Shown: piece after piece, positions 3,684 through 45,169 of the stretch
Numbering within the stretch: the stretch's first letter is position 1
How the letters are laid out: the number at the start of each line of letters is the position of its first letter
NCBI GenBank assembly: GCA_976551045.1
Contig: CDPCPM010000026.1
Span: forward strand, 2,232,001-2,296,000
Direction: 5' to 3'
Length of the DNA: 64,000 bases
Source: Glaucostegus cemiculus
Taxonomy: Eukaryota
The notes under the pieces: generated by a model
Databases searched by the model: none
The model's input: the letters and a program-made list of their open reading frames with translations, nothing else
Told to the model about the DNA's origin: nothing
Made by a program: the position numbers and the translations under genes

Positions 3684-3810
3684 GAGGGAAAGCGGTAGTG
3701 CAGTGTGCCTAGACTTGCAAGTAATCGACACAGTGAGGAGTGGCAGAGATCGGGAAGACACAGTGATGCACCATGTCTTAAGGGAGAACCTGTACAAGCC
3801 AAGGAAAAGG
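3684..3810 (+). CDS. SLC9A5: SLC9A5 coding exon (probably exon 12)
   Basis: Acceptor atcag| and donor AGG|gtaagg. Encodes RESGSAVCLDLQVIDTVRSGRDREDTVMHHVLRENLYKPRKR, near-identical to recalled NHE5 RESGSGACLDLQVIDTVRSGRDREDAVMHH..LYKPRRR. Confidence 0.96.
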
Positions 3811-4374
3811 GTAAGGCATTTTTATAACTACACTAAGAGACATAGCGGTAACCACTCAACTCGAACAGAATGGGCCTGAACCATGGTCAGTTAGCCGATT
3901 GCACCACAGAATGACAGGGATGCACAATTGGCCTCAGTGTCCCAAAGTTAAGAGGAAAAACAAAATATTTAAAATTGGTTCTTGTGATTACTCTGTAATA
4001 GGCCATCCTGAGTATGTATTGAATACAATGTGCGACCATGTAAACGTGTCCAAACCTATTGACTCAATGTCATAATTTTTGAAATTTAGGGGTGAAATTC
4101 ATTAATCTGCCAATAGCATAACTCACATGAATACCAACATTTTTGACCACTTTTAAAAGTTTCCCCCTTTTATGTATAGCAAAAAAATTAAAGTAAATGT
4201 ATGTAATGATATGAACCCAGAGTGTAAGTGGAGAAGCAGCACATGCTGAATCAATTACTGCCTGTACAGTTAATGCAGTTTGACAGTTAATAACTTTTTA
4301 TGTTGTCGGCACTCTCTCTATGTGCTTCAGTTGTTGATTTTATTATGATTGATGTCTGCTCCATGCTACACCAG

Positions 4375-4551
4375 TACCAGGGAAATTACAGTCGGCACTT
4401 CATTGCTCAAGGCGAACAAGAAAGGCAAGAAAGGGAAGTTTTCCAACGAAACATGAGAAGTCGTCTCGAGTCATTCAAATCCACCAAACATAATGTCTAC
4501 CCTTCAAAGAACAAATGCAGACATAAAAAGGAGCACAAATGTCAGAAAAAG
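4375..4551 (+). CDS. SLC9A5: SLC9A5 coding exon (probably exon 13), ending at a GC donor
   Basis: Acceptor accag|. Encodes YQGNYSRHFIAQGEQERQEREVFQRNMRSRLESFKSTKHNVYPSKNKCRHKKEHKCQKK, and the RLESFKSTKHN motif is typical of NHE5. The 3' end is placed at AAG|gcaaga by phase with the next exon. Confidence 0.92.
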
Positions 4552-5855
4552 GCAAGATTCTTTTCAGTTGTATGAAGTTGGTTTTATATTTTAAGGCCAT
4601 GGAACATATTTGGGGGCAAAACATTTTCCACATCTGTTGTTACAGGAAAACATAATCTACATGAAAGGGGTTTGACTCTTCAATTTTCCTGCTCCACAGA
4701 CATATTTTCTTTCAGTGAGTGGTAAACTGAATCATGACTAACAGTGCTCCAGGCTAAAAAAAAATTGAAAGGCCCTTCTACATTGGATTCAGTTTTAGTT
4801 TAGTTTTGTTGAGGGCTGGATTTTCCATATATTAAAGTTATGATCAAATGACCTCATATGAGTACAGATTTATTCAAAGACATTCTCCTCCTCCATTAAT
4901 GTATTATCAACCATAAGATACAGCTACAGCTTATAAAGGTCTAATCTATTCTTGGCTGCATATACATTGTTATAGCAAAATTAATATTTCATAATCCCAA
5001 GATAGTCTCAACTAACAAGCTTCTGTTTCCGAGATCAAAGCAGACACCAAGTATCTTTTGCAAACCTAAGACTTTGTTTACCTTTTCATTCTGCTTATTT
5101 TTTGGTCAAAGTCTCTGAGCAGAATAAGACCAGAAACAAAATTCTGGAAAGGCATGATAGGTCAGACTAGACGTGAGAGAAAAGAACATGCTAACTTGTC
5201 ACCCTTTTAATTTTGTCAACTCTTTCAAGGCAGACTAATTCCTAATTTTAACAAATTTTGAGCCATCAGGGAGAAAATCTGAAGGGATAATTTTAATTTA
5301 ACTCACTGATGGAAAACTAATACGATCACATGGATTTACGTACTACCTGATACTTAATTTCAATGGAGAGTAAAATTGGATAGGACCTAAAAACCATTAT
5401 TTTTATAATTGTCAACTTGGGATAAAGTTACCCTGCAGTCTTATTTCTGGTGTTTTTTAAATACTTTGCTAATTGGCTATATTTATATTGCATTCAATCC
5501 GTCCTCTGAAATGTGCATGGTAAATCCAGCACCTTACTCTCTCTCTTCTTTATGTGTGGTTTGTGTCATTGAAAACTTTGACAACTTACCACTGAAATCT
5601 CTAATGGTTCTGGAATTTGGTGGAGATTTTCTCCTCTAACTCCTTTCACCACAGAAGCTACAGCACTTCACACAAATAAGACATCTATTTGAAGTTTGTT
5701 TCTTCTAACTTTAACGTATGCATATGGTACAAAAAAATGAATTGAATTATGCACCATATTTTCAAGTTAAGTAGTTGAGCTCAAAAACATCAGTGATCAG
5801 CCTACATCTGTTTTAATGATGAATTCATTCAGTGCTTTTATGTGGTTTCCAACAG

Positions 5856-5928
5856 AGGAATGCTGAAAGTGCAAATGGCCAAGTACCTAATGATAAGTTG
5901 CGTCGAAATGTCAGCTGGCATAATACAA
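5856..5928 (+). CDS. SLC9A5: SLC9A5 coding exon (probably exon 14)
   Basis: Acceptor tttccaacag| and donor A|gtaagt. Encodes RNAESANGQVPNDKLRRNVSWHNT, weakly like NHE5 ANAEATNGK. Phase 0 in and phase 1 out fit both neighbours. Confidence 0.85.
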
Positions 5929-6919
5929 GTAAGTCTGTAATTGATTAATTCACTTAAAGTTTAAAAATACATTCTTTCTCTGCACATGATCTTTCTCTGT
6001 AGTTTCTTGAACTCAAGATATTAGATTGAAGCATTTCCCTTAAATTTCCCATTGTGAGATTGGATGATCAACCATTCACTGTCAGTAAATGGCATCAATA
6101 AACTGGAAGATGACCTTTGTAATTCAACATATCCACGCATCTTGCTGCAGTTAGGGGTCAATGATAAGAACGTATCAGGATTTTTTAATGGAAATAGCTG
6201 CTTAACTCTAGAGCATTTATTCTAGGATCCCATTTAGGAAAAGGCTTATGAAGACAAACCCAGGACTATCTCTCCAGCAGCAGAAACATTACTGAAGACT
6301 TGAAGGATCCCTGACCTAGTCAAATCATTGGTGCCTGAAGAAAATATCAAAATCTGGAGAGCAGTTGAACTCAGCATTATCCAAATATCCTTAATCTCAT
6401 TTCTTTCAGGAGAGACTGAGCATAAACTTGAAATTTCAATATTGATGTTTCTTCAGACAACATTTATTACCGAATGAATTTAGCAAGGATTGTTTTCTCA
6501 CAAGGAGATGATGCCTTTTATGTTTATATCATAAATTAATGGACACAGAAAGTACTTAAGATTATGTGGTCAACAACTGAGAATGTAAGAAGACTTAGTT
6601 TCTATTTTGCAAACAATTTATGTTGGCAAATTAAATGGCTCTACTATTCCAGATCTTGGAGTGCAGACACCAGTTTGCAAATTAAACAATTTGAAACCCA
6701 ATTGGAGTAAAATTTCTTCCAAATGTAAGACAAATACTTTGAAAAGTATCAAGTTCTGTACAAATTCTATAACTATTGTTCCTACTTGGACACTGTAACA
6801 GAGTGAAGATCTTGGCCAAGTTATTATGGTCGAGTTGCTATTATTCTGGATTTTTTTCTGGGGTTAGGATACCTTTCATTATTTGCTGTGGATAGCTAAC
6901 ATTTTCCTATTATCCACAT

Positions 6920-7760: not shown

Positions 7761-10161
7761 TCTCTGAAAACCTTTGTGCCCCCCCGTTACCAAATTCTAT
7801 AAAAAAAGATGCTGTGGTAACTAAAAGGATATTGTCAAAAATATGATGGTGTCAGATCAAAATAGGGAGTTGGGGAACAGAAAAAAATGACCTTCCAATC
7901 AGTCCAAGGTATTCTTTTTTGTAACTAACAAGAGTTAATGTTGATATTCTATTCACCCGGTCTTTTGACAGCCAGACCTTTCTTCTGCTGTAAATAAAAT
8001 TTAAAATTTAACATTCTTGAAATCGGTTCTTCCAGTTAGCATTCCTCTATTTAGTGTCATTATCTCAAAGTGTGAAAAACAAATGGCTTTTGCAAGCTTC
8101 GTTTCATGAAGGTAGGAGTGACACAATGTGCTTCACCCACAGTCAGGTCTACCATCCAACACCAAAATGACAATAGAAGATAACCTTCTGCAGTTCAGGT
8201 TTCCCCAAGGTCGAAGGTGACTTCCTGAGTCACTGAATGCATTGTTATGACCTTCAAAAACTACAAGAACTTATGATCCAATAAGTAGAGGATCAGTGAT
8301 TATTGAAAAGCGATCATGCGCATGAACTCGGGCACCTTTATTTTAAGAAATTGTTCTGCGAAAAGCAAGGATACTGGAAAGATTCTGGGGAAACTTGAAT
8401 CTGGCTTTCAAGTTATGGATCTTAACACCATTGAGGCTGCCAGTAACCATAGCTGGTTGAAAATTTAGCAATGCCAATGGTGCCGTGATGATCAATACTA
8501 AGCCTACTTTCACCAAGAAATTAATTCTTGGCCAGCAGTATCAAATATGCAATATAGAAGCATCACATACTTGGAATACTGGAACCAGAGACCAAAGCTC
8601 ATATACAGTTATATTGCATAGTTAACATGAGCAACAGAGGATGAGTGCATTTCTCTGCCCACCCCCTCCGTCCATATCTTAAATAGGGCTTTAGATATTG
8701 AACAGATTGAACCCATCTTTCAACAGTCAAACTAGAATGGGTTACAGTAATTAGCAATACCATAAGTGGAAAAGACAAAGATTGGAAGCATACTCATTTT
8801 TGCTCACATGTGATTCCATTAATTATTTAATTGTCTATACAAAGATTCCCTCTTTTTTTTCAATGATGAACAAGTAAAATTGCACATTTAATGTCCATTA
8901 CACAATATTTCCATAATTTGTTTAAATTCATTCACAATATTCCTAATCAGATAGTAATCTAATTCTTTGAAAGGATTAATCAACATAGCAACACTTTCAA
9001 TATTTAGCAAAGGCACAAATTTATGTCAGCTGTCTCCAGTCATGCATATATTTAAGTTTGTTCTTGTATTTCATTCTGCTCTCATTGTGCAAGAGCATCA
9101 CACCTGGGTCATGAGTGTAAAGGAGAAGAGAACAAAATGGGAACACATAACATTTTAACTGTTGGGTTTCTGCAGCAGGGAGTGGAATACAGGGAAGAAA
9201 GGTTTTGTACCTGGAAGACATACCAGCACAAAACCTGGGAGGATTCACCTCCCCCACCATCCATCTCATCTTGCTCCTCAGTATTAAAGTTTTGAGGTTT
9301 ACCCTGGAGAAGGTGGCTTTTGTCTTTTGACCCCACTTCTCCCCAGTTGGAATATCAGAGAAAGACAGGCTGCAAAAGCCTCAGGTAATTCTATACATTG
9401 GAGCCTAAAATCCATCCACCATTTAATCATAACAATTCTAGGATTGTTTCTGCCACCAATTCTAAACATTGATTTCTATTTCTATAAAGAATGCCCTGAT
9501 AATCATCGTAAAGTTGCCTTTTCCCAGATTCAGCCCATCTTCCCTGCGTTGATATCTTCGACATGCTGGCATTTCAGTTTGGTTTTGGATAGGAGTTCAT
9601 AGTTCTGTTTGTTGCCCTGTTGCACACTGTATAATTGAGCTCTTCATCTTTCAGCAAAAGCCGTTGCTGGAGACAGGCACTGAAAGTATGCAACAGATCA
9701 GTCTTTCATAAAGAATGAGACTTAACATGTCGGATTTCCAGTGACTGTCAGCAAGTTGTTGGCTGAACTTGTTGAAGGAGACGCTGAGATGAATGTGAAT
9801 TATTTAAACCTATAATTTATGCATGTGCAGCAGCATTCTTCAGGAACAGACATGGTAAATATATACCAGGCAGAAAAGGGTTGAGTTCTGTGATAACAGG
9901 TTGCAGGTTCACATATCATGGTTAACCAGCCAAGATGCAGTATTCAACCTAACTATTACTTGAAGTAATGGCTAGTAAAACAAGGAAGAAACTCAGAAGT
10001 TTTGATGTCTTGGAAAGAATTCCTTTAAATTTTCCTAATCCATAGTAAAGTCTTCATGAAGCAGGAAACGCTGGAACTTGCTGGTTCCTGTCTGCTGCCC
10101 AGAATTGCAGTCTGCACTCACTTGGGTAAGATGCAGATGGCCAATTCCACTGGCCCTTAGC

Positions 10162-10304
10162 ACCTGAGAATGGTGCAGTGAGATCTCAGCGACCTGAGAA
10201 TGGTGCAGTGAGATCTCAGCGACCTGAGAATGGTGCAGTGAGATCTCAGCGACCTGAGAATGATGCAGTGAGATCTCAGCGACCTGAGAATGGTGCAGTG
10301 AGAT
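10162..10304. repeat. 30-bp minisatellite, about 4.8 copies
   Basis: Unit acctgagaatggtgcagtgagatctcagcg starts at 10162, 10192, 10222, 10252 and 10282, with one substitution in copy 4. Confidence 0.95.
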
Positions 10305-11363
10305 TTCATCTTCGAGCAGATGTCAGGAAGTATGGTCCTAGGAAACTGCACTGAAACTCTCCCAACAATGGCAAAGTCAAGGGTGGAACACTGTTTTGTG
10401 TCAAAGCTGTGAAGCTCTAATAATTGCAGATATTTAAATGCTATTAAAATTCAAGTCAGTAATTAAAAGAATTACTTTTCTTAATACAACAAAATAAAGT
10501 TCAACCAAGCACATGTCGTCTGAAGCATTAGCTTAACATAAAATATGTAGTAATGACTTACCCTATTCCAAAGGCTTAGAATCCCCATCGAAGTGAATGG
10601 CATCTCTAGTTCTATGCCATGCTTAGGAGTGGAGAGGTAATTCTCTAGTGTAAAGGTGGAGAACTGCAGCAAGACTGGACCCCACTGCTGGACTCCACAT
10701 GGAGCCCAGTGATTGAGCACAGTGACAGCAAATCTACCAAGTTCTATGTCGGCAAAACCTTCGGAATCACTGACAGCAATCAACAAAATTCAGCTCATTA
10801 ATATTGTGGTTTTCCCAACATTATTCCTCCTTCCTCAGGCACGTGAAAATATAAAGGTGCAGTTTCATGTTCCAATATCCCTTGGCGGTCACTTAAGTTG
10901 GTATTCTTTGTGTTTAAGTCAATACATTTGCAGCTACTTCACATAGTGGAAGATCATTGATGAGTTTGATGCTTATTTGTTATCGGTTTCAATATACCTT
11001 CCAGCATATATTTCTACATACCAGTCAGGAATATAAAGGTTGACGATTCCACTGCTCCTTAACCCATAGTTCTTACGATCAGTTCTTACACTCTATCACA
11101 CTCCCTAATGTCAGATAACCAAACACACCAAATTCAGCTCATTTCCATCTTCTGGAAGATACATTCCCCACATACAACAAACAGCATTGTCACTGATGTA
11201 ATATCTTATTGAAGCAGTTAAGGGCCACTAATTATTATGTTTGCAACGGTAAAAGTGATTTATTTTTCTACTTAACCAAGACCAGCTATGCGTGACTAAA
11301 TTATGATCGCCCCTTATGTGCAGAACACTGGAGTATTTAATGTTTTCTTTCTATTGGCCCTAG

Positions 11364-11501
11364 TTCCAGTTTTTGTAGAAGTTGACTCAGAAGATGAGGA
11401 AAAGGATAATCCTGCAAAGCTGAAAGAGCAGGAGGATGACGAGGGGATCACCTTCATGGCACGCACAGAGGATGAGAATTTACAAGAAAGAAAAATTTCA
11501 G
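11364..11501 (+). CDS. SLC9A5: SLC9A5 coding exon (probably exon 15), acidic cluster
   Basis: Acceptor ggccctag| and donor G|gtataa. Encodes (I)PVFVEVDSEDEEKDNPAKLKEQEDDEGITFMARTEDENLQERKIS, matching NHE5 EKEDDEGIIFVARATSEVLQEGKVS. Phase 1/1. Confidence 0.93.
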
Positions 11502-12089
11502 GTATAAAGTGGACTTGAAAACCAAATTAGACACAGGCCCTGATATTAAAAGCAGGATCTAAGGGAGACCAGGAATGGATGAAGAATCCGCCGAGGTCGG
11601 GTGTGGAGGACCTGGCAAATCATTTTAATTTTTTTGCTCTGTTTCTCCCCAGCTGGTAACCAAAATGACACCCCAGCTGGTGGCTGGTGGGGAGATTAGG
11701 GTGGCTGATTACCATCAGAAAGGGAATCAAAGCAGTGAAGAGAGGGATTGGCCTTTGGGGCTTTTGAATGTGAAGAGTGAGGCTGTAATCATCAGAGGGG
11801 CTCTACCTAGCCCACAGGAGGTGCTGGTTAAGAAACATATTTTGTGAAATTGGCATTTCCCACAAACCTTTCCCTGTCAGATCACCCAAGTCCTGGGGAA
11901 TCCATGTAGCAGCAATGAACTTTGAACCAAGTTTCCAATTGTATTGTGTGAGAGCCTGATTTAAATCAACCTCTCAATAACAAGACATTCAGACAGTATG
12001 TTATTCATTACCAAACAAAATGTAGCAAACACATCCATAATTAGTTAGAGGTACATTCTCCATAACTCCAATTGTTTTGTGCCTTTAAT

Positions 12090-14090
12090 AAGGGCATGTT
12101 ACTGTGCACAATTTCTGGTGGTGATAAAGAGGTAAAACTGCCACAAAGCAGGAAAATGAAAGTTTACATAACTTATCTGTTCTGAGAAGTTGTTCTTCAT
12201 GAAAATAGAGTAAGTAGGAGTGAAATTAAAAGGGAAATTAGGAAAGCAAAGAGAGAGCATTAAAAACTGCCAACAGATAAAATCAAAGAAACTTGGAGGA
12301 TATGTTACAAATATATAAAGGGCAAGAGGAGAACTAAGCACAGAGCAAGGATTCTTAAAGACCAAAAAGGTAACCTTCATGTGAAAAAAAAGATGATGTG
12401 TGTAAAATTCTAAATGAATAATTTGTGACTGTTTTTAAGGAGGACAATGATGATGTTGTATTTAAGGAGGAAGAGCATGAAATATTGGATGGGAGAAGCA
12501 AAGTAATAGAGGAAGTATTAAGGGAGGTAGCATCTTTGAAAAAAGATAGATTTCCAGGCCTGGATGAAATATACTTCAGGATGTTAAAAGAAGCAAAGGA
12601 TAAAATTGCTGAGGATCTCTGTCACTTTCAAATATATTTGTATAATGAAAGAGTGGACCATGCCTAATGTTGTACCATTGGGGGGATAAAGGGAGTAAGA
12701 GATAAACTGAGAATCCAGGCCAGGTTGTTTAACTTCTGTGGTATTAAATTTATTGGAATCAATTCTGGGGTACAATATCCACCTTAATCTGGAAAGGCAC
12801 AGGTTAATCAAAGACATACAGCATGGATTTGTTAAGTGATGGTTGTGTCTGAATAATTTGAATTTTTGAGGATTAACGAGAAGGGTTGATGAAGTTAATT
12901 TGTCCAATTTAATCTACCTGAATTTTAACCAAAGGTTTTGGCCATGTCCAAAATGGCAGGTTGGTCAAAAAAGGAAAGGCACATGGCACCCAAGGGAGAA
13001 TGGTAAATTGGATTCAGAATTGGCTTAATTGCAGGGAGCAAAGTGTGACAGATGGATGTGTGGTTTTGTGACAGGAAGGCTGTTACGACTGGGGCTCCAC
13101 AAGGCTGGTGCTTGGTCTCCTGTTATTTGTTGTTTATACGTTAGTGATTTACACTTAAATTTGAGGGGCATGATAAGGATGTTTGCAATGTTACAAAAAT
13201 GGCTGCACTTAACCGGATGGAGGAAAGCTTTAGATTATAGGAACATATAGACGGTCTGGTCATTTGGGAAGAAAATTAGCAAATGAACTATAATCCGGAT
13301 AAGGGTGAGATTATGCATTTATGGAGTTTCAACAAGGCAAGGGTAAATGCAATCAACTCCAGGGTATGAGAAGTGAGGAGGAATAGAGGGACCTTGGAGT
13401 GTAGGTCCACAGATCCTTAAAGATAGCAGAACAGGTAGATAAAGTCATTAAAAAGACACAAGTGGGATATTCTCCCATATTTATTAGCTAAAGTATTAAA
13501 ATTTAGGAGCAGGGATGATATGATGGAATAGAATGCAGAGCTGGTTAAGTCACTGTTTGAGTATTGTATGCAGTTTCAGTTTTTCCTTATCACAGCAAAG
13601 ATATGCTTGCGCTGGAGAAGGTACAAAGGAAATTTATGTTGCAAAGGCTGGAAAATTTTAGCTATGAGGAAAATTTGAAAAGACTGGGATTGTTTTCTTT
13701 GGAATAGAAGAGGTTTGTTTGTAGTGTATGAAATTAAAAGGAGTTTGGTTAGAGAAAGGAAGAGCAACTCATTTCCCTTAGCAAAGTGTTCAAAAATCAG
13801 AGGACATGGGTTTAAAGTCAATGGCAGAAAGGTCTGATGGGAGATAAGGTTATTTTATTTCACCTCGAGAGTGGTAGGGGTCTGATGCTCATTGCCTGAA
13901 AGGGTGATAGGAGCAGGAAACTCCATTGATTCAATGAGTGTCTGGACTTGTGCACTTGAAAAGCTCTGGCCTGTAGGGTTACAGATCAGGTGCTGCATGG
14001 GTGGGATTAAGCTGGCTAGCTGTTTCTCAATGAATACAGGCACAATAAGATGAATGGCATCCCTCTGTGTCATAAATTTTCTGTGATGCT
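12090..14090 (+). mobile_element. Old CR1 LINE ORF2 fragment through 3' end
   Basis: Frameshifted CR1 motifs: FPGLDEIY.RMLKE, cagcatggatttgttaag (QHGF), GHGFKV, and a 3' end gaatggcatccctctgtgtc. Confidence 0.8.
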
Positions 14091-14759
14091 ATGGGTACTA
14101 AGTTTCAAAAAAAAGATACCTCATTGTCTTCTGGGAATCAGAGGCAATCACGTTGACTGATTCAAATGGTATATTCGTTTATACATAAGAATTTTTCTTA
14201 TTCATTAACAAGGCTGTGTAATAAACTTTGTGTGGTGGGATTGGAGATCATTTTACTTGTGCCAGATGTTCCATTGTAAACCTTTTCTTTCCAAAAGCAG
14301 TTACAATTTCTGTTAAACTGAACAAACTGAAAATATTTTCACCAGGATCCCATTCAGAATGGATATGCCTGTTCCACTCCCAAATGTGAAAGCAGAGAAT
14401 TTTATTTATAACTTGTACCACACCATCTCCCATCATTCCTTCACTGTCTTTTGCCAGTCTTCATATGTGAGGTTGAACCACATGATGCATGTGCACAACT
14501 TGGAGTTCCTGCCATGTGGTAATTAAGTTTCCTCATTAAACACTGGAATTCAATTTTCCTACTGCTACAACTAAACACTTTGCTGTTGTCAACAGTAGTC
14601 AAATTTTCAAAATGGTGACAGTAGCACCAAATAACTGTCTCAAAACCTCCTGATTCACCATTTGTTAAAGTGTGCAAACAAGTCTGAAGCGTCGGCCATG
14701 AGGTGCATTCAAAACATTCCCAATTTAATTTTAACTTCCGTAGTTTTTAATGTTTAATG

Positions 14760-14915
14760 TTTTTTTAATATTTATTCTGTTAAGTGTGTCTGTGTGTCTC
14801 TGTTGGTTGTTATTTAATAGGACGAGCACCTGAGGAGGACGGTATCTCGCTCCTATGCATACTATGTATGTATATGGTTGTGACAATAAAACTGATTCTG
14901 ATTCTGATTCTGAAC
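14760..14915 (+). mobile_element. 3' tail of a Rex1/Babar-like LINE
   Basis: gtgacaataaaa followed by a (ctgatt)n microsatellite tail. Confidence 0.5.
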
Positions 14916-15831
14916 TTTGAATTTAAATTTTGCTTACGATTGCCTCTGGGAACAGATACTAAACAGTAACAGACTGTTGGATTTATTCAGGTGCTGTGGC
15001 TACAGAACTGGGCTCTGTGCTTCTATTGTTTCACCACTGTGTGTACTTCCAACTTTCTCTGCAGATCATGAGGATAAGTTCTTGGTGTAATTCTCACTGT
15101 GTTGTAAATCGGTTAGTCTGGTGGCACAAGTGTCATTTGCCAGGAGAGGGTGGGCAGATTATGACATCATTCCTCATGATCCACCTAGGGCCATTCGTCG
15201 ACCATTTGCAGAAAAGCAGCTATTCATAAGCAGGAAGACCCAGGCCCAACCCACCCTTCCCACAAAACGCCCCAATCTGAACCATTTAAAGGGATCATTG
15301 ATTTGTAGGTGGTTGATCTAATGAATAGTTGTTTGGAGAGAAGTGTGGAATTTGACTTTGCCAGAACTAGGGAAAGTTTCTAACATCTTCAGAGAATGTG
15401 GTGACTGGGTTTTGGACTCTATCATAAACTACTGCACCTTTGTCCTGCCTGAGAATATTGTTGGCCATTTCCCTGAGCATTTAACGCGATGGGGAGAAAG
15501 AGGACAAAGCCCCCAGGAAAGGGGAATCAGCTGGGAGAGTGAAGAGTAGGGCGAAAAGGACGTTGAGCAGAAGGTTCCGTCCTCAGTACCAGTTGTCCTA
15601 TTTGCAGCTCTGTGATGAATAATGCCTGTGAACACTCTGCTTAAGTAACTAGTTGCTGATCTTGACCTGCCCCAAGTTACAGCCACAGTGGTGCCCACAT
15701 AACTGTGCAAGGACTGCCCTGCCTGTGCTTATTATGGTGTCGGACATCAATTTCTTTAATCCTGGGTTGTTTCCAGATTAGTGCTGGGGACATTAGCAGT
15801 AATTCTTTATTTGTACCATACTGCCACATGC

Positions 15832-16640
15832 AGATTGGAATTAGAATTAGTTTATTACTGTCACTTGTACCGAGCTACAGCTACAGTATACAGTCTTGCA
15901 TACTGTTCATACAGATCAATTCATTACACAGTGCATTGAGGTAGTACAGGGTAGAGCAATACAGAATGCCGAATGAAGTTCAGCAGCAACAGGGAAAGTG
16001 CAGTGCCAGTAGACAATAAGGTGCAAGGTCATAACAAGGTAAATTGTGAGGTAAAGAGTCCATCTTATTGTACTAGGGAATCATTCAATAGTCATAACAG
16101 CAGGATAGAAGCTGTCCTTGAGCCTGGTGGTATGTGCTTTCAGACTTTTGTATCTTCTACTTGATGGGAGAGGAGAGAAGAGAGAATGTCTAGGGTGAGT
16201 GGGGTCTTTGATTCTGCTGGCTGCTTTACCAAGGCAGCGAGAGGTAAAGACAGAGTCCATGGACGGGAGGCTGGTTTCCATGATGTGCTGAGCTGTGTCC
16301 ACAACTCACTGCAGTTTCTTGTGGTCATGGGCAGAGCAGTTGCCATACCAAGCTGTGATACATCCAGATAGTATGCTTTCTACGGTGCATCGATAAAACT
16401 TTGTGAGTGTCAAAGGGGACATGCCAAATTTCTTTAGCTTCTTGAGAAAGTAGAGGTGCTAGTGAGCTTTCTTGGCTGTGGCGTCTATGTGGTTGGACCA
16501 GGACAGGCTATTGGTGATGTTCATTCCTCAGAACTTAAAGCTCTCAACCCTCACAATCTTAGCACCCTTGATGCAAACAGTAGCATGTACGCTGACCCCC
16601 TTCCTGAAGTCAATGACCAGCTCTTTTGTTTTGCTTTGCT
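15832..16640 (-). mobile_element. Rex1/Babar-clade LINE 3' fragment
   Basis: Encodes RCLGKAASRIKDPTHPRHSLFSPLPSSRRYKSLKAHTTRLKDSFYPAV, the C-terminus typical of this family. Closely related to the copy at 60753-61420. Confidence 0.85.
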
Positions 16641-16649
16641 AGGGAGGTT

Positions 16650-17020
16650 ATGGAGGCTGTCTACTTGAGATTGATGGGGGCACTGTACTCAAAGAAAGAA
16701 CATCCCATCTCCTTGAGCAGAGAGCAGTAGCCAACATGTGAGTGGAGTTTCCCAGAACGATGGGCTTCCTTGAGGCGCAGAATGGTACTGACAGCACCCA
16801 TGTCATCTTGAGGACTCCATGTGTACTTCATCCTTGAGTGGTCTCAGCCCTTCAGTATCCAGCTGCTCAGTGCTCAGATCACGTGTGATGATATGCTCAA
16901 TCTGGGGAGCTGTTTCATCTTGCTCTGGTCCACTGTGCCATCTATTATCCTGCCACGAAACCAGACCAGCGAATGTCTGCATGATGACAAGGGCTATCCT
17001 TTGTCCCAGTAGCTACGGGA
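16650..17020 (-). mobile_element. Degenerate LINE fragment (RTE-like)
   Basis: Resembles the RTE-type ORF C-terminal region; heavily decayed. Confidence 0.35.
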
Positions 17021-17059
17021 AATTTAAATTCAGGCAATTAAATAACTACCTGATTTTTT

Positions 17060-17260
17060 TTTAAAAGGCTGGTCTCAATAACAGTAGCAAAGAAACTACT
17101 GAATTGTTTAAGAACCCATCTCGAGAAGGAATTCTACCATCCTCATCCAGTATGGCCAGTCTGTGACTCCAGACTCAACCATGTGCAATTCAGGGCCAAT
17201 TAAGAAAAGACAGTAAATGCTGGCATTGTCAGTGATGTCCACCTCCTGTGAACAAATAAA
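17060..17260 (+). mobile_element. Elasmobranch SINE/LINE-tail fragment
   Basis: Motifs gaaactac..gaattg, gaaggaattct, tgtgactccagac and aaatgctggc. Part of the same pattern recurs at about 35750-35980. Confidence 0.5.
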
Positions 17261-18864
17261 CACACGAAAAAGCCATAACAACAAAAGTACAATGAAGGAG
17301 GCAGCTTCACACAAAAAGGCAGAATTCTCCATCAGTAAGCAAAGTCCTGCCATCCTCAACCCAGTCAAGCTAAAGAAGTGACCACCAGACACTGGGTGAT
17401 GTTTGGGTCTGCAAGTGTTGAAATGGAGCCAGCCACCACTTTCATGCTATTTTGAAGGACTCCCAAGCTTTTCGCAAAGCTACATGCATGGTTGGAGTTG
17501 GCACCAGCAAATTCCTTCACACTTAACGCAGGCCTGGTGGTCATTGTGCACTGAAAAGCCAAGAACTGCAGTTGTGGGGAACCTACAGTAAAACCAGAAA
17601 ATGCACACCATTTGTGGAGAGAGAAAAATGGGTGGTACTTGTGTCCTTTTGAGAACCGGCACCTCCTCCTTTGTAGTTTTCCTGCCTAGCATTTTTGTGT
17701 ATCTATTCATTCGCTGGAAGTGGGCATTGCTGTCCAGATTGGCCATGTGGTCACACACTGGCTGTTTATTTGAAGGACTGAGGCTCCTTGAGGGTGTAGT
17801 GCACCGTGGATTTTGATTGGAGTCCTCGAGGGGATTTACAGTAAATCATGTTTCAAGAATTCTGGATACTAGTTCTCTGTAGCTGTGACACTTTACTCTA
17901 CTGTTATTTTTCTTACCTGTACTACCTCAATGCACTCTTTACTAACTCAGTGTAGCTGCACTGTGTAATGAATTGACCTGTATGATTGGTTTGTAAAACC
18001 AGTTGGCTTCTCCAGTCTGTTGCAATTGAATAACTGGCAATGTGTAAAATCTGTGAGATGTGAACATGAAATTTGGAGTAGAAGTAAGCATGTGAAGTTG
18101 ACGAGGGGGTGGGGAAGGGGCATCTGAATGTTAGGTCCCAGCCTTGATGGAGAGAGATTGTCAGTAGGCAAGTGATGGAGGTGTATTGTATATCTGACTG
18201 ATTCTACAGTTTTTGAGAAATGGGAATTAGTAGTGTTTACACAATCCATGACTATACTTGTGAATGCAATGCATGCACATGCTTGGATCCTTGCTCTTGA
18301 TATTAACCTGACCGTCATCTCTTCCTCCTGTCACTTAACCATATCCTGGGGGAGCTTCCTAACCTTGTGTGGGAAGTGGACTTATTCTTCTCATCCCTAC
18401 CAAGGCCTTCAGAGCTATGTCTGAAGGTAAGGTTGCCCTGTCTCACCCATGATCTGCCATGGCTTCCAGCAAGCTCTGAAACTTATTGAAAGAGTTGCCC
18501 CGATTAGTTACAGCCACATGGTACTTCTCTTTTAGGAGTTGCAGGCTTTAATCAGCTCTTCCAAGCTTCATTTGCTGCTTGCCACCTGTGAAATTTGGCC
18601 ACTTGAATATGTGCCAAGGTAATAAATAGTGGAGTTAAACCTAAGTAACTCTTGAGTTTGGAGCACAACTTTTGTCCGATCTTATGCCATGTCAAAAGGA
18701 CACAGACTAATCATGCTTCCCTATTCCAGCACACGTTTTCCAGCACTTTCCAATTTAATAGCACGGCCATCAATTAACATTGCATTTTTTGTTTTCTATC
18801 AAGTAACAGGTCTTACATTTTATTTTCTGATGTTCTTCTGAGGATAACTCAAATCTTGTTTTAG

Positions 18865-19076
18865 TCACTAGCCAAATCAGTGATGACACTGGCACAGAAT
18901 CGGACATTTGCAAGAAGGATCCACCTTGGAAATTTCAAAATGACGAACCCATCCTTTCACAGAGTGCTCAGCTAGTGCGGCCCGGTTACATTCATCTCCA
19001 CGAGATCAGAACTAATTCAGCAGACTCGCAATTGTCCTCTGAAGCAAAAGAGCAACAACAAACAAATCAACAGTAA
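18865..19076 (+). CDS. Candidate alternative terminal exon of SLC9A5 (70 aa)
   Basis: Pyrimidine-rich acceptor tcttgttttag| in phase 1, matching the 11501 donor. Open for 70 codons (VTSQISDDTGTESDICKKDPPWKFQNDEPILSQSAQLVRPGYIHLHEIRTNSADSQLSSEAKEQQQTNQQ) to TAA. Confidence 0.45.
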
Positions 19077-22000
19077 ATAATGCAATTATCAATTACTTCC
19101 TTCTGCTGGTCCTCCATTATTTTCACCTTCTTTCTTTTCTTCAATCTGGAATACTTATGCTTTCTTTCTTCAACTCGAAGATATAAAGTGCAATAGTCTG
19201 AGCCATTATCAACTTTAAAAAGTAGAGCATGTTTGCATCTATATTTCTGTTTGCTGATTTCTAAGCAGGCTATTAAAGGAAAATGTAATTTAATTCACAA
19301 AGGCACTGAGTCTGATGTTATATGTACAGATTCCTCAGATATTCTGCTAGTGAAACAGAATTGCAAATGCAGCTCTTTTTACTAAAATGAAGACCTCTCT
19401 GGACTCACTAATGGTTTGTGTACTGGTCCAGTGAGAAAGCATGCATTCATCTTTTCATTACGTTATATTTTTAAAAATATTTTGAACATGCGAGTTCAAG
19501 CCACAGTTACATTGCCAGCTGGTGTGAGATCCTTTGCAAAAGGAAGCCCCAGATCCCTTGTTGAAATTGAAAATTGCTGCAATATAACTAAAGCCTAGTA
19601 TAAAAATGTAATTTAAAAGTGCAGAAGTGATCCTATGGAAATATCACAATATTTAATAAACCAGCCACGTAGGGTGCACAGATTTGCAAATACTTTTAAT
19701 TTGCTTGGTGTCTATGGCAGCCTCAAGGGAAAAAACCTACACTGACCAGAGATGTCAATAACAGTTTGTAAGATCAAGTTCAAGCAACAGCAGGTACCTG
19801 CCCTGAATTGCACAGCTGGGGCAGAAGGATGGTGCCAGATAGAAATAACAGGGGTGAGTAGTACTCACGAAGTGAATGCAAGTGCAAGCATGAGCTGTTG
19901 GACTGGAGAGCAAGTTACCCACAGAGCTCACACTGGGGGAGGGAATGAAAAATGGAACATGTCATCATGAATTGAGGTAAGGAAGGGGGATGGAGGAGGC
20001 GGTGAGGGGGATGGAATCATGACTGAAGGGGAAAGAGAAAGGTGAATGATGTGAACTGAGGGACGATGAGAGCCAGTGTGAACCGAGGGATGAAGTGCGA
20101 TAGTGGGGAGAGAGAGATGAAGCGAGAGAGTGCGAACTGAGACATGAAAGGTGAGGGGAGCCAGAGTGGACTAAGTATTGAAGGGTACTAGTTTGTGGAG
20201 GCAGAGGGAAAGGGCACCTGGAAATCACATAAAAAGGGAGAATAAAGTCTTTATCCCACTGCATGAACCAAATGTCGCCCTTTAAGAAAATTTAATGAGA
20301 TTCAATAAGTACTTGCAATGCATATCCCTAATAGCAGGTAATTGCTCTTCAAGGATAGCAGAAAAAACAAACAACTTTTGACTGTTATATAACTGATGGC
20401 ATATTTTGTAGCCTGTAGTTGAAGTTATGACATTTTTATGCACAAGTGCATTTCCATGTCATAAGTTTATACTCATACTGTTTGTATCAGCTTTTTGAAG
20501 TTGCTGATTTCTGTGTTCGTCCATGCAAGGGCATGGGCTGGATCACAGAAGCAGCTCAGGCCAACGCTGCTGATTCATTCTAATATTTCAGTCAGTAGTC
20601 AGAGTGGGAAATTGTGGTATTCAATCTGGAATGTTATCTGCGGTGCACAATCCAGTATACGAATGAAGCAGGGTCAGCTACAAGCAGTAAAAAGCTTTTT
20701 CTTAAACAAAAGTAGCTGGCGTAGTGAGTTATGAGAGTGGTTGAAGATTCCCTGGGGAATTTGGAATGATGAATACAATTTGGAATGAAGCAGCTTCTTA
20801 GCAGCATGGAGTGACTAGTCATTAAATTCTTGAAGTGATGGTCAGGTTGCAGATGAATGAGCGTCCTGATTATGAATAATTTTATTCATTATTAATCCAT
20901 TCATTGTGAGTAAAAATGCTTAAAATAACTCAGAATGATCTATTGATTTATGTAAGAATGCAACACTTTACAGGGAGCGACCTGTTGGTTTGATGAATGC
21001 AGCATTTAGAAAAAAAAGTGACTTGTGGTATGTAATTTACTCCTTTGAAATTAGGACAAAGTGGATGCTGAAGTTGTGTTGCCCTAACCTCAAAATGTTC
21101 CTGTTGGACAGCAGAATTGTGTGTATAATCTATGAGAAAGCTGATGACTGAATATTCCAACTGGGAGAGTGGCACCTAGGAGCAGGCAGAATTAGATCCT
21201 CATATGTCAGCTCAATTCTTTTGTGCTGCAGGTTGCAGAAAGTGCAAGTGGATAGCACACAACAGGGCTTCTCATTGGTGTGTGCTGGGTTTCAACCTAT
21301 TAAACAATGAGAAAGAAACAGAGGATTGGAAGAAAATGGAATAGGGTGAACGAATGCAGAGAGGATTAATAAAGACAAGATAAGGAAAATTGGATTAAGG
21401 GAGGGAGGGGGAAAAAGAGACGATAGTAAAAAAAAATTGCAAAAGCACTAACAATTACTACCTGCAGAAAAGAGTCAATAGTTCCACTGTCTCTTTGAAG
21501 GTGAAGTATGCATTGCAGGAACATTAATCTCAATATTAAAAAGGCCTGCAGGCAGTTAAATATTAGCCCTAATTTCTGCAGATAGTTTACTGGGTAATTA
21601 ATGTGTGAGTGCAGCAATTGTTTTACACCCATGAGAAGGTTGAGGGTAATCTGTTGCTTAAGTGAGGATAACTAACAGTGGACCAGTGCAAATAGTCCAG
21701 CAATTTCTGGTGATTTGCAACACATAAGGTAACTTGCCCTCATCATAAATTAATGGACGATTTATTCATTAAGATCACAGGACCATTAAACTTGTTCTTA
21801 TTTTGCTTTTGAAGCTTTGAACTGTATTCAAGTATATCTTGCGAGACTTCCAGGTATCAGTAATAACTTGAACTTTTTAATCTTGTTATCATGAAACATG
21901 GTGATGGTCTCTCCGTAAACCCTTGCTTGCTAAATTTTAATTTGCTCCAAGTTGACTTGAACTCTACAACTATTAATTTTCATCTTCCTAGCACCTTTAT

Positions 22001-22151
22001 AGCAAATCTTGTGCTGACTTTACTCTCACACTGTTGTGCATTTATTTAAAGTATTACAGTGAATGTATTTTGAAAATATATATTTTAGGATGCATATATG
22101 TACCTTTTTAAATGTTATTAAAATGTACTATTTTTAACTTGTATATCTCAG

Positions 22152-22693
22152 ATAATTCTGAATATCTTCAAAGCCCAAGCATTATCCCACTATCTCCTAC
22201 TTCTGCTGAGAAAGAGCTTCCCTGGAAAGGTGACACAAGTAACCTTTCAGCCTGTGTCTCTTTGGAAACTACCAAGATTGTGCCAGTCGACTTGCAATAT
22301 GCCTGGAATCGCAGCATGTCATCGCTCGAGAGCCTGGTCTCACCTACCATGTCTGATGTAGTGTTTCAGCCAAGGACCTTGAATTTCATGCTGGAGGAGC
22401 ACACAGCTTCAGCACGGCATCACGTCCATTTCCAGTTTCCTGATGTTTGTACAGCTGGCGAAAGGAGTGCTGATGAGGACACCGTTGAGTTTATTCAGCA
22501 GCAGGAGCTGCAGCCACTGATGTCTGCTGAAGATGATAGCAGACCAGTTCCGTCTGCTGGGTTTGTAAGTACCAGATGGTCTGCTTCATTCCACAGACCT
22601 TCCTATGTCTCAGCACTGAAATCTTTGGTTACCTCAACACAATACACCACTAAACAATCTGAGAAGTCTGGTAATAAACAGACAGAACTTTAA
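22152..22693 (+). CDS. SLC9A5: SLC9A5 terminal coding exon (probably exon 16) with stop
   Basis: Acceptor atatctcag| in phase 1. Motifs SPSIIPLSPTSAEKELPWK, SLETTKIVPVDLQYAWNRSMSSLESLVSP and QQQELQPLM all match NHE5 tail motifs. Ends QTEL-TAA. Confidence 0.95.
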
Positions 22694-31754: not shown

Positions 31755-32945
31755 ATCAAGATTCAAGACTCACTTTATTGTCATTTCTTTGAGTATTTAC
31801 ATGCACAGAAAAACGAAATACTGTTTCTCGCCAGTTCATGTCAGTGCACAAAAGTACAGTGGTAAATATCTAAAATAGTCTAAAAACATCTCTAAAAACA
31901 AAACTAACACATAACAACACCACATATTCATATCTGTTTAAAGTGTGTCTATGTATTAATAAGTGCTTATACAGTTCGAGATGAAGTTCAACTTATCATG
32001 TAACTAACTATCAAACTGTTTCTGTATTTATGTGAGTATATACATGTGTGGAGGGAGAGCTTGTCAGTGGAAGTGGAAGGGGACACATTCCATTTATGAT
32101 CCTGACCGCTTGTGGGAAAAAGCTGTTCAGCATCCTACTAGATCTAGAACAGATGCTCCTATACCTCTTCCCCAGTGGCAGAAGGGAAAACAGGTTGTGA
32201 GAAGGGTGATGAAAATCCTTAATGGCCATAGCTCTGCGAACACAGTGTTGTTGATAGATCTCTCTCAAAAAGGGGAGAGGGGCACCGATGATCCTGCTGG
32301 CTGTCTTCACCATCCTATTGAGCTGCTGTTGTTTGTAAGCCTTGCAGCTGCCAAACCAGGAGGTGAGACTGTAGGTCAGGATACTTTCAATGGTGCCCCT
32401 GTAAAAAGTGATGAGGTGTGGAGTAGGGAGGCCTGCCTTTCTGAGTCTCCGGAGGGGGTAAAGCCACTGCTGGGCTTTTTTAACAGTGGCTGCAGTGTTA
32501 ATAGTGGAGGTCAGATCATCCGCTAGGTGAACCCCCAGGAACTTAATGTTGCTGACCCTCTCCACAGCAACACCATCAATAGTCAGCAGTGTATGATCGT
32601 GCTTGCCAGCCCTCCTAAAGTCAATCACCATCTCCTTTGTTTTGTCCACATTGAGGGCGAGATTGTGAAATCTACACCACGCTGTTAGCTGTTCCACCTC
32701 CATCCTATATGCAGACTCATCATTGTCACTGACGAGACCCACCACTGTTGTGTCATCAGCGAACTTAATGATGTAGCTGGTACTGAATCTGGCAATGCAG
32801 TCATGTGTGAGCAGGCTAAATAGCAAAGGGCTCAGGACGCAGCCTTGCGGTGAGTCTGTGCTCACTGAGATGGTTCCTGATGTGTGATTACCAACTCTAA
32901 CTATCTGCTGCCACTGCATCAGGAAATTGAGGACCCAATTGCAAA
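31755..32945 (-). mobile_element. Rex1/Babar-clade non-LTR retrotransposon, 5'-truncated; 302-aa RT ORF at 32011-32919
   Basis: Motifs PQGCVLSPLLFSLLTHDC, KFADDTTVVGL, LNVDKTKEMVIDFR, KFLGV and FYRGTIESILT, plus a 3' tail caataaagtgagtcttgaatcttga. Confidence 0.92.
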
Positions 32946-35749
32946 TGTCAGTGACTCTATTTTCTGTTAGTTCACCACTCCTCCGCCTCTGCCAATATAT
33001 TACCCCTCAAACCTGCGCAATTTTATTTAGTGTGAAAACCTATTAAAGGCACCTTATTAAATGCTTTCTTGAAAGTATGTTTACTGGAAAGCACTGTTCA
33101 TGGTTTTTTATGTTGGAGGAGAAACAAGACAGAACTTCTACTCTGCTGTGACCTGATCTATATTCTTGGATTGGGAATGATTCATCTGGTATGCAAACAG
33201 GCTTCCAAGGGGATCATGATCATCACCCAAAGCCTATTACTGCTTTGCTACAATGGTTAGCATCAAAATCAGGAGATAATAGTCTAAAAACCTAGAAGTT
33301 ATCCAAATGATCTGGTCCTACAATTTTTATTTTAGGTCTTAATTAGGTCTGAGATCATAATTGGGTTAGTGGTGGTGCCTTAAAGACAAGATACTCTCCT
33401 GCAGCCCTGTAGTCTACTGACACCTTTCTGCTGGTTGTGGCTGAGTCAGTGGCAGTAATAGTGGAAAGCAGAGAAATTTGGTTGGTCTCTATAGATAGAA
33501 TGGAAAATCTAATCTTGTTTGTCTGAAGCTCTGACAAGGTTTGGCTAAAGCACTAATAACGATTCCTTCTCAAGGCTACCAAAAAGCCTGCAGTTTCTCA
33601 CTGTCCAGAAGCTCTGCAAATGATCCCAAGAATCTTAGCATGAGTTTATCCCTTCAGCAAAGAAGGGGGTGAAAATAGTGTTTGGAAAGGAAATTTAATG
33701 GAATTAAGATATTAAACAAAATAATAATATGAAATAATAAACCAGAATTCCATATACAAGTATTAAATCTACTCTTGAAGTACTTCCAAGTGAATTCAAT
33801 GGGCTCATTCTTAACAACTACCTCAGTTGCAGAACTCATTATTGCCAATTACTATAGGCTGTTGTTGGGGATCAAGTACATGAAGACACCATATTACAAA
33901 GTTCTTATTGAATTAGTTCCAGATATTGTTCTTCTATTTTTCTGATGAAACAATGTAACTGTGGACCATTTTATGGAATGTATTTCTTTTGGCTGTAATC
34001 ACAAAATTGTCTCTCATTCTGCGTCAGATTTTTCTCATTGGATTCTATTCAGGCTAATATTGGCTTATCTAATTGAACTGTATTTGAAGGGCATTGCAAA
34101 TTAATGTGGATGTGAACTGCTTTAATGGAAAACTAAATGTTAGCAATATATGATATTGTCGTGCAATAATTACTAAATAAATATGTATGATTAGTATTGT
34201 AAAACATTCATTGATAATAATAAATGAATTTAAACAATATTTTACTTCCGACAGAGATCAATATCTGAATATTATTAAACTGTTCAAGGCAATTTTAATC
34301 AATGCAAGCATATTTTAAAGAAGATAATCTCCAAAGAAGGAATATTGTCTCAGCAGATCTAATCTTAATGTGATATATATTATATTTCTAATTCATACAA
34401 ACAGAAATACACCCACAAAAGCACTAAGCATTATGCATTAATAAAATAAATATTTATATATCTGTAAATCAGCCCAAGTTATGAAACCTGTCCTTCTGGT
34501 TACCTTGATTATACAAACACCTTGCTTGAAAGGAAAATTTATAGTTACACGTATCTTTTAATTTGTGTGAGATTTCTCAGGAGTTAAACCAGCCCAGGCT
34601 ACTTAATGCTTAGTGGATAAATACTTGCTACTGATTTAACTATCTAGTAGTTTGTAGGTAGTAAGTTATATCTAACTTATCTGCCACAATATTTATCCTA
34701 AATATAAAAAATAGCTCCATTGTACCAGCCTTCCTTATGTATTTTTTTCCCCTCCACTGGTAACTTCATACCATTTTGTGAACAATTTTATAGGGCAACT
34801 CTGATGAGTCTCTGCTCCAGACTCCCTTTGCCTATTGATGGACTGAAGCCCACTAGTGCTTAGTGTGGCTTCCTTTGATATCCTTCCCACTTGCCTGATC
34901 TACTTAACCCCTGCAGTGTTAGACTGAGGTACAAACTGGAGGAGACTGAGTAACATTTTCATTGTTGTCACTGTGGAGTTCTTGACTTTAGGAAGGTGGC
35001 AGTTGAGTTAAAATATGCACACATCCCTACAATGTCCTTGGCACAATAATTGTGGAGCTCTCTCCCCTCTGCATCGTTTCTCTCATCCCTTGTGGTCATT
35101 ATTATGTGTTGTTACAGTCTGGCTTCCATGGAAAGACTGTTTTTAGAGTTGATGTCTTATGATTGGTGTGCAGCAAAATATTTCCAGCTGTGTTAAATTG
35201 GGTGAGGTTTCACTGGGAACTGCATCAATCCTGTTTAAACCTGTGCTAGGCACCCTAATGTTATTTCAAAAGTTTTTTTGGACAATTATACATTATTGTG
35301 GGCATACTGAATTGGCAGTTATGCCATACACAACATATGTTTAGTGCACTAAAAATATGAGAAATCCAATTTTTAAGTGTGGATCTTTTCATTTGTGAAA
35401 CAAAATGAGACTCCCATTCCAAGGTGAGAGTACATTTAAACCAGGATTCCCAGACAGAAGAGTTGTATGTTAAACCTCTGTTTTACCATTGTGTTTTCTG
35501 GAAATGCTGGATCCAATAAATAGAGTATATTAATGGGAAAATGTGTAACCATTCAAGCTAATTGCCACAAACTGCAAAATGGGGCTAAAATGTTTTCTGT
35601 AATGATGTTGAAATAGATGGAATTGACTGACCCTAAGAGTCATAGTTGACTTGTATCTCAACGATACAATCATTAAAGCTAAAAGAATATTGCTCTAAAT
35701 AATTCAAACAATGGTTCAGTGGTCAGAGGAACATACAAACTGTACTGTA

Positions 35750-44160: not shown

Positions 44161-45169
44161 AAAATATATTAAAAATATAAGTCAACTCAATTTTTTTAAC
44201 CTTGTGTATAATTTGATAAATGATCTGTCAACAAAATGGAAATGAAAGCGAGGTTTCTATTTGGTAAACAGTCAATTTTACAATGGTCTCAAAATTCTAT
44301 TGTGTAACACAATATTTTAGTTGCAATTTTCCTTATGGATCCTCCCTGCATATTACATGTTCAGGCAACCAATGGTGTGCATGGTTGGAAGCCACATCCA
44401 CAATTTTCATTGATGCATGCATGCATTCACGCAGAAGAACTTAACAAGACATGCGAGGCCTGCCATGGCAGAATTAAAAGGGGAGCTGCCCGAACTGGCC
44501 ACAGCCCAAGGGGTCAAGCATTGGGAAATGGCTTCAGGTAGCTGCATTTTAAGTAAAAAGCTCACCACATGTCCCCAGAGTCCCACAACTCCTTCTCCTG
44601 CTCACAATCCCCCAACTCCCCACTCCCAACCCCCAACAGCAACTGTTGCAACTGTGAATTTCCCCTGGAGCTGATTCCACTTCCTAAAACCCTTTGTCCT
44701 TGAGATCCCAATCACCTCCAACCTGCGCTGCTATCCCTATTTGATAGACAGAAATGAGCCTTTCTTCCTTATGGCCCTGTGACTTCGGACTTCCACCCAC
44801 CTACTTTCCTGACTTTGCAACGGCAGACATTTCAACATGCTAAAATTGCAAGCTCTGCTCTTTTAGGCACAATACCTTGGGCCTCATGTGAAATAGCATT
44901 TTGCAGTGGCAGGCTGTTGACAGAATCATCTTCTCGACCACTGCCAAGTAAGACGCCAAATAACTTCTGGGCCCACATCCTTTCAGGAAAAAATAGTAAA
45001 ACGAATTGGTGACTAACAACTACTATTAATTTGCATGTTTGGAATATACTAAATGGTGAAAATGAATTTTCCCATTACTGCACCAAACAGGATTCTAACG
45101 AGGTTTGAAAGTGGGCATACTAAGTCATGACAAGATAAAGTTGCTCCTGCTGGAAACCTGAAACAAAAA

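Follow-up and report, generated by a model that had tools for sequence, protein, structure and literature searches.

Does the last intron of the NHE5 gene SLC9A5 harbour a further exon that exchanges the C-terminus of the protein? The question is raised by the stretch of Glaucostegus cemiculus DNA analysed here (64,000 nucleotides, hereafter the window), which contains the 3′ part of the batoid SLC9A5/NHE5 gene. The identity of the gene is given by its canonical last exon (exon B), 97% identical to Pristis NHE5 (P0127), and by its top database matches, which are named NHE5. The NHE3-like paralog sits on another contig, and a 19-row tree separates the NHE5 clade from the NHE3-like group with support 100/99. 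The constant exon upstream of the last intron (borders AG/TT at 11363/11364 and G/GT at 11501/11502) encodes an acidic, DEDDEGITF-like segment and ends with the residues ERKIS; one contig of run X1 covers exactly 11364-11501.

A preliminary description, made from the letters of the window, proposed an alternative last exon inside this intron. Its elements are all found in the sequence: a donor TCAG/GTATAA after 11501 that leaves phase 1; an acceptor, TCTTGTTTTAG, in front of 18865, followed by 70 open codons (one split and 69 whole) and a TAA at 19074-19076; the hexamers ATTAAA at 19272 and AATAAA at 19655; a possible internal donor CCG/GTTACA at 18984/18985, in phase 1; and the start of the canonical last exon at 22152. 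On their own, such features do not beat chance. In the last intron (11502-22151), 13 AG sites each open at least 69 codons in the same phase, and the 3079 nt downstream of 18865-19072 contain nine copies of AATAAA or ATTAAA. The exon rises above chance because its protein tail is conserved and because splice junctions are seen at both of its ends. Coordinates are collected in Table 1.

Table 1 Features of the NHE5 locus, in window positions, and of its NHE3 paralog, in contig positions.
Feature	Position	Strand	Remarks
SLC9A5/NHE5 coding exons	near 2421-2525, 3685-3828, 4375-4551, about 5850-5930, 11364-11501, 22152-22693	+	
SLC9A5/NHE5 upstream constant exon	11364-11501	+	138 nt, phase 1 to phase 1
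Acceptor region of cassette exon A (…CAAATCTTGTTTTAG)	18835-18864	+	X1 junction from 11501; upstream-exon letters in X2, X3
Cassette exon A	18865-19072	+	208 nt, not a multiple of 3; 70-aa tail VTSQ…KKDPPWKFQNDEPILSQSAQLVRP…QQTNQQ
Weak internal donor GTTACA of the preliminary description	18985-18990	+	no evidence of use
Exon A donor GTAAAT	19073-19078	+	overlaps read-through stop TAA 19074-19076
Canonical last exon B	22152-22693	+	skip: 180-aa tail ending QTEL; inclusion: 3′UTR, stop TAA 22153-22155
ELQPLM segment of tail B	22507-22524	+	absent from tail A
NHE3 exon A	G000:C180 18936598-18936358	minus	241 nt, after a phase-1 donor; ends AT/GTAATT, donor overlaps stop
NHE3 exon B	G000:C180 18932872-18932280	minus	starts ag/GTAACA; skip frame open 197 codons, ends ETQF

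Elsewhere in the window, two repeats of the last intron (15754-16995 and 17824-18237) collect divergent RNA reads by the thousand, from both strands, and an upstream intron holds a short tandem array (10150-10320) whose translation consists of repeated RPENGAVRSQ units. Long stop-free frames lie on the minus strand at 32014-33006 and 45052-46014; the former carries a KFADDTT motif, and we take it to resemble a LINE reverse-transcriptase fragment. We identified no gene next to SLC9A5 on its downstream side.

The SLC9A5 exon is real, and it is a 208-nt cassette (exon A), not mainly a last exon. A contig from run X1 of a relative reads through 11364-11501 and passes straight into exon A, up to 19076, making the very join from 11501 to 18865 that had been proposed. 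The letters of the upstream exon also precede exon A in contigs of X2 and X3. All three runs consist of assembled contigs of relatives whose RNA status is guessed, X3 being marked ‘probably DNA’ though it carries the downstream joint. On that side, the donor in use is CA/GTAAAT at 19072/19073, overlooked in the preliminary description. It was first predicted from the end of the X1 contig, the fall of X8 depth after about 19072 and the endings of Scyliorhinus proteins; the joint itself was then seen. Exon A is joined to exon B, with 3079 nt skipped, in 3 of the 6 aligned X8 raw RNA reads (at least 99% alike, with 2 start places), a sample from about 18% of one run that comes from relatives and not from the window's species. 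One X2 contig and one X3 contig, from two further organisms, carry the same joint. It is reported at 19073/22153, with intron ends TA..GA; a shift by one base, which assumes a G in the relatives where the window has A at 22152, gives GT..AG ends and an intron of 3079 nt at 19073-22151. Exon A is therefore equipped as a cassette, with an AG acceptor, a GT donor whose position depends on that shift, and inclusion junctions on both sides.

The proposal that exon A is a last exon, mutually exclusive with exon B and polyadenylated at its own site, does not hold, since exon A is spliced onward in X8, X2 and X3. At the hexamers 19272 and 19655 no RNA was aligned and no molecule ends were listed, depth there being very low. 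The internal donor fared no better: no joint was listed at 18985, and none of the 68 printed proteins uses it. Tandem-duplicated, mutually exclusive exons were rejected as well, as exons A and B show no significant likeness (p=0.09) and are joined to each other. No read of X8 enters the intron, and X8 has no depth between 19110 and 22025; runs X9 and X10 have none on exon A, and X6 contigs cross the last intron without a joint.

Inclusion is the sole junction into exon B seen in the aligned runs; among the joints listed there, none skips from 11501 to 22152. The skip form appears in database models, which in 21 of 23 chondrichthyan species run from the upstream exon directly into exon B, and we infer it for the window's species from these models of relatives. 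The preliminary description was right that the exon is alternative, is entered in phase 1 and gives a shorter NHE5 lacking the T-E-L end.

What does inclusion do to the protein? The A-B join reads CA/A TAA in the window and CA/G TAA in relatives, so that the protein ends in QQ. Because the join creates a TAA at once, the 180-aa tail becomes 3′UTR and is replaced by the 70-aa tail. Reading through the donor gives CAG TAA, and the end of the protein is identical to that of the spliced route. The first base of the last exon, 22152, is A in the window (D-N) and G in relatives (G-N), the inclusion stop being kept either way; X8 and X6 further differ from the window by C>G at 22203. As a rule, nonsense-mediated decay (NMD) is triggered when over some 50 nt separate a stop codon from the last junction further downstream. 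Here the inclusion stop lies 2-4 nt past the last known junction, inside the last exon, and NMD is therefore not expected, provided that the 3′UTR holds no further intron; with the stop at 22153-22155, the reading as a poison exon is rejected. Ten QQ endings in the database are compatible with the immediate stop. The two Scyliorhinus tails end in QQKF, which is among the endings allowed by the shifted frame of their last exon (G-N-F-E). The shifted frame does not account for the tail-A endings of Hemitrygon and two polypterids.

Tail A ends 15 of the 68 printed proteins, from 13 elasmobranch species (sharks, skates and rays), Polypterus and Erpetoichthys. Among the 23 listed species of chondrichthyans, 14 have a record of tail-A type; for the remaining nine, one of them Callorhinchus, it is missing from annotation only. 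Between the window and six elasmobranchs, tail A is 72-97% identical, and 37% identical to that of bichir; the canonical tail is similarly conserved in the same species (71-89%, bichir 48%). Against the relatives in the aligned runs, the indels of exon A measure 6 and 9 nt and keep the frame, and its 6 substitutions among the rows listed comprise 2 synonymous ones and 4 in 3 changed codons. A 6-nt in-frame insertion of two residues at 18884-18889 is present in the window and in X6; X2, X3 and all 15 database tails lack it.

Tail A was found in 0 of 173 NHE5 records of lobe-finned fishes and tetrapods, a set of mostly birds and turtles that was partly selected by tail B; 169 of these have the long tail, 4 have neither, and no mammals were identified among them. 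The homologue sample covers 120 of 499 matches, with one salmon record (tail B) and hardly any teleosts or mammals. Searches with the tail alone gave nothing further. The window's peptide yielded 15 candidates against longer proteins of the database, none at E≤10, and the bichir tail region 18 candidates, none of them a match; these blanks are misleading, as tail-A isoforms are non-representative cluster members. In the PDB there was no match for the window's tail and 7 chance-level matches for the NHE3 exon, and in its own genome the tail-A peptide finds only its own locus.

Two groups of records stand apart. The Narcine NHE5 records (P0121, P0122 and P0125) have tail A or very short ends, none having tail B, and tail A may be dominant in this electric ray. 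In the Stegostoma X1 and Pristiophorus models, the first three-quarters of tail A are in frame with the long tail: they leave exon A early at ‘IRS’ (window 19011-19013) and enter exon B in frame. A Ser codon at this place could supply A/GT; the window has ACT (Thr), which closes the early-exit route here.

The two tails differ in their short motifs. The acidic dileucine consensus is [DE]xxxL[LIM], and the ELQPLM of tail B fits it. E..PL[LIM] occurs in 207 of the 212 NHE5 B tails, and [DE]xxxL[LIM] in none of the 16 A tails. Related motifs are EQKPLI in the NHE3 exon B of the window's genome and ERQPLM in lamprey; the cat NHE3 B tail has no dileucine-type motif, and the bichir variant falls outside the pattern. 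Tail B ends in T-x-L in 27 of the 29 printed fish records (coelacanth and lungfish being the exceptions), the shape of a class I PDZ ligand, and tail A ends in QQ. Inclusion of exon A thus likely removes a candidate acidic dileucine-type motif and a predicted PDZ-type end; the acidic segment upstream is retained in both forms. Published work describes NHE5 in recycling vesicles that shuttle to the cell surface (PMC9081726), the regulation of NHEs as mediated by the C-terminal domain (PMC9062697), and the C-terminal tail as determining both regulation and trafficking (PMC9062697, PMC9081726). From the motifs, the inclusion form is predicted to undergo less endosomal sorting and to be anchored differently.

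The NHE3 gene of the same genome has a matching layout. This paralog, on the minus strand of contig C180 of genome G000, clusters with NHE3-like proteins of cat, sea krait and catfish at 100/99. Its exon A shares with that of NHE5 the position, the phase, the length class (208 nt in NHE5 against 241 nt in NHE3, each leaving a remainder of 1 when divided by 3) and a donor placed at the stop; position, phase and donor-at-stop are what would be expected of counterparts. Joining NHE3 exon A to exon B is predicted to produce M-stop, and skipping to give a 197-aa tail.

The tail sequences were compared in 55 scored pairs. Tail A matches NHE3 exon A with a score of 46 (z 4.9, p about 0.001), with PPW at an equal offset from the acceptor and a collinear core, PPW-x9-SQ-x-A-x4-P, in both. 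A profile of 16 NHE5 A tails (A5) ranks NHE3 exon A first of 149 tails (E 5e-4); NHE5 tail B comes second, at E 0.035, no better than background. Run in the other direction, the search places five NHE5 A tails among the first seven of 150; a background protein (rank 2) and amphioxus stand between them. Other A-tail pairs are weaker: bichir A against NHE3 A gives p=0.07, window A against P0219 p=0.39, and the hhalign probability is 14.5%. The preliminary description had also heard an echo of KKDPPWK, in exon A, in KELPWK of NHE5's own last exon. This likeness is not significant (shuffle p=0.09), and homology of exon A to that exon is rejected on the same figure. Its other suggestion, an ancestral NHE3-type tail, is probably right: the match to the NHE3 exon has moderate support and the layout is common to both genes. 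We consider it likely that the exons A of NHE5 and NHE3 share a common ancestry. The switch itself probably predates the NHE3/NHE5 duplication, as the layout is shared and the cassette resembles NHE3 exon A.

The B tails are related too, with z 9.3 between NHE5 tail B and NHE3 exon B and z 27.7 between the NHE3 B of shark and cat. NHE3 thus likely has a second, hidden tail that has persisted from sharks to mammals. The idea that mammals simply kept reciprocal exons is rejected, since the cat NHE3-like model retains the B tail. Of two cyclostome proteins on an unresolved fork of the NHE tree, the one from hagfish carries a tail of type A (z 12.6 against NHE3 A), the one from lamprey a tail of type B (z 8.8 against NHE5 B). 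In the tail of an amphioxus NHE (P0181), LPWK is followed by a PPW segment, the latter with z 6.6 against NHE3 exon A; an ancestor among the invertebrates may have had the two motifs one after the other.

We now propose an explanation for the locus. Very probably, exon A is a conserved 208-nt cassette whose inclusion brings an immediate stop, exchanges the 180-aa tail for one of 70 aa and is likely to redirect the exchanger. Splicing in of exon A would put the stop right where the last exon begins, and the short tail would replace the long one; tail B would promote recycling through endosomes and binding to scaffolds, and with tail A the exchanger would be more surface-resident or differently anchored. 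Exon A of NHE5 would be the counterpart of NHE3's usual tail exon, and the switch would be older than the gene duplication. Its resemblance to the NHE3 exon could instead be convergent, whether exon A arose in NHE5 on its own or by tandem copying of the NHE5 last exon. The weak profile-profile score, the pairs that are not significant and the second rank of NHE5 tail B under the A5 profile, albeit at background level, are compatible with this. However, convergence would have to account for the shared position, phase, length class, donor-at-stop and collinear PPW core, and a tandem copy for the p=0.09 between tails A and B, and we regard this origin as unlikely.

The cassette reading has a more serious competitor in the possibility that exon A is also, or in some tissues mainly, a true last exon, with the weak donor at 19073 read through and polyadenylation in the intron. 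The protein would be the same, as the read-through frame likewise stops at 19074-19076. Contigs of X1 and X2 end exactly at 19076, after the GTAA common to the intron and the last exon, and depth on the contig that continues into exon B falls from 188 to 35 in X1 and from 15.5 to 7 in X2, suggesting a second continuation, although these depths are whole-contig means and a poor measure of expression. Splicing to exon B also leaves the Hemitrygon and polypterid endings unexplained. Against such a route, the intron is empty of X8 depth over 19110-22025 and has no X1-X3 match (a diverged UTR might not align), and poly(A) hexamers are common in it anyway. It is the less probable account, with perhaps one chance in three. 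Far more doubtful is that exon A serves as a regulatory off-switch, making a truncated, unstable or inactive exchanger in which the sequence of the tail is irrelevant. Inclusion does cost 180 residues, among them motifs kept in nearly all NHE5 B tails, and leaves a QQ end without a recognisable ligand. Yet in elasmobranchs tails A and B are similarly conserved, the frame of tail A survives indels, the stop in the last exon does not make a poison exon, and inclusion accounts for every junction into exon B in the aligned runs; we find an off-switch highly improbable.

The isoform is in part already known. RefSeq short NHE5 models of Amblyraja (X2, XP_032892110.1), Leucoraja (X2, XP_055504496.1), Chiloscyllium (X2, XP_043563060.1) and Polypterus (X2, XP_039618892.1) have the same exon, tail and upstream join as the window; they are automatic and named only ‘isoform Xn’, and the window differs from them by its two-residue (6-nt) insertion. 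The dual-frame last exon of NHE3/SLC9A3, in this genome and in cat (UniRef A0ABI7VPM8, P0179), agrees with that of NHE5 in both exons, their phases and the junction-made stop. The familiar NHE3 is the inclusion (A) form, with a PDZ-type end (ESSM here), whereas the familiar NHE5 is the skip (B) form, and tail A of NHE5 is shorter than that of NHE3 and ends in QQ. Houndshark NHE3g and NHE3k/i, reportedly described by Li et al. in 2013 as N-terminal variants from alternative promoters, are also isoforms of an elasmobranch NHE3-subfamily gene, but the event is a different one.

Among PMCA (ATP2B) variants, the b forms retain a PDZ ligand and the a forms lose it. According to PMC13464777, the a/b variants at site C likewise arise from the optional use of an exon: the reading frame shifts, and a membrane ion transporter receives a different C-terminal regulatory tail. 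PMCA is an unrelated family; in NHE5, the initial bases of the last exon supply the stop, which repeats one already present in the donor, and each of the two tails corresponds to the usual tail of one of two paralogs. The annotation of the isoform in RefSeq and the frame-shifting tail swap as a kind of event (PMCA site C) are thus known already; what is new is that NHE5 has a donor-at-stop cassette, that this cassette is conserved from rays to bichir and that NHE3 shares it. The literature searched, with most subscription journals outside it, yielded no paper on a short-tail NHE5 isoform.

For work on fishes, antibodies to the long tail and studies of NHE5 may overlook a common isoform. Natural tail swaps of this kind are useful for mapping sorting signals, and the conserved ELQPLM is a candidate NHE5 sorting signal. 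A wider account, whose chances we put at about even, is that the tails of NHE3 (epithelial, apical) and NHE5 (neuronal, endosomal) began as alternative splice forms of a single gene in ancestral vertebrates. Both options would persist in both genes of cartilaginous fishes, and later lineages would have adopted opposite defaults, the tetrapod NHE5 losing exon A and NHE3 holding a hidden B tail in its 3′UTR; the choice of exon would switch the exchanger between residence at the surface and recycling through endosomes, and some fish tissues may have the short form as their main NHE5. A splice switch common to NHE3 and NHE5 would offer a testable account of how these two paralogs diverged, by dividing ancestral splice options between them.
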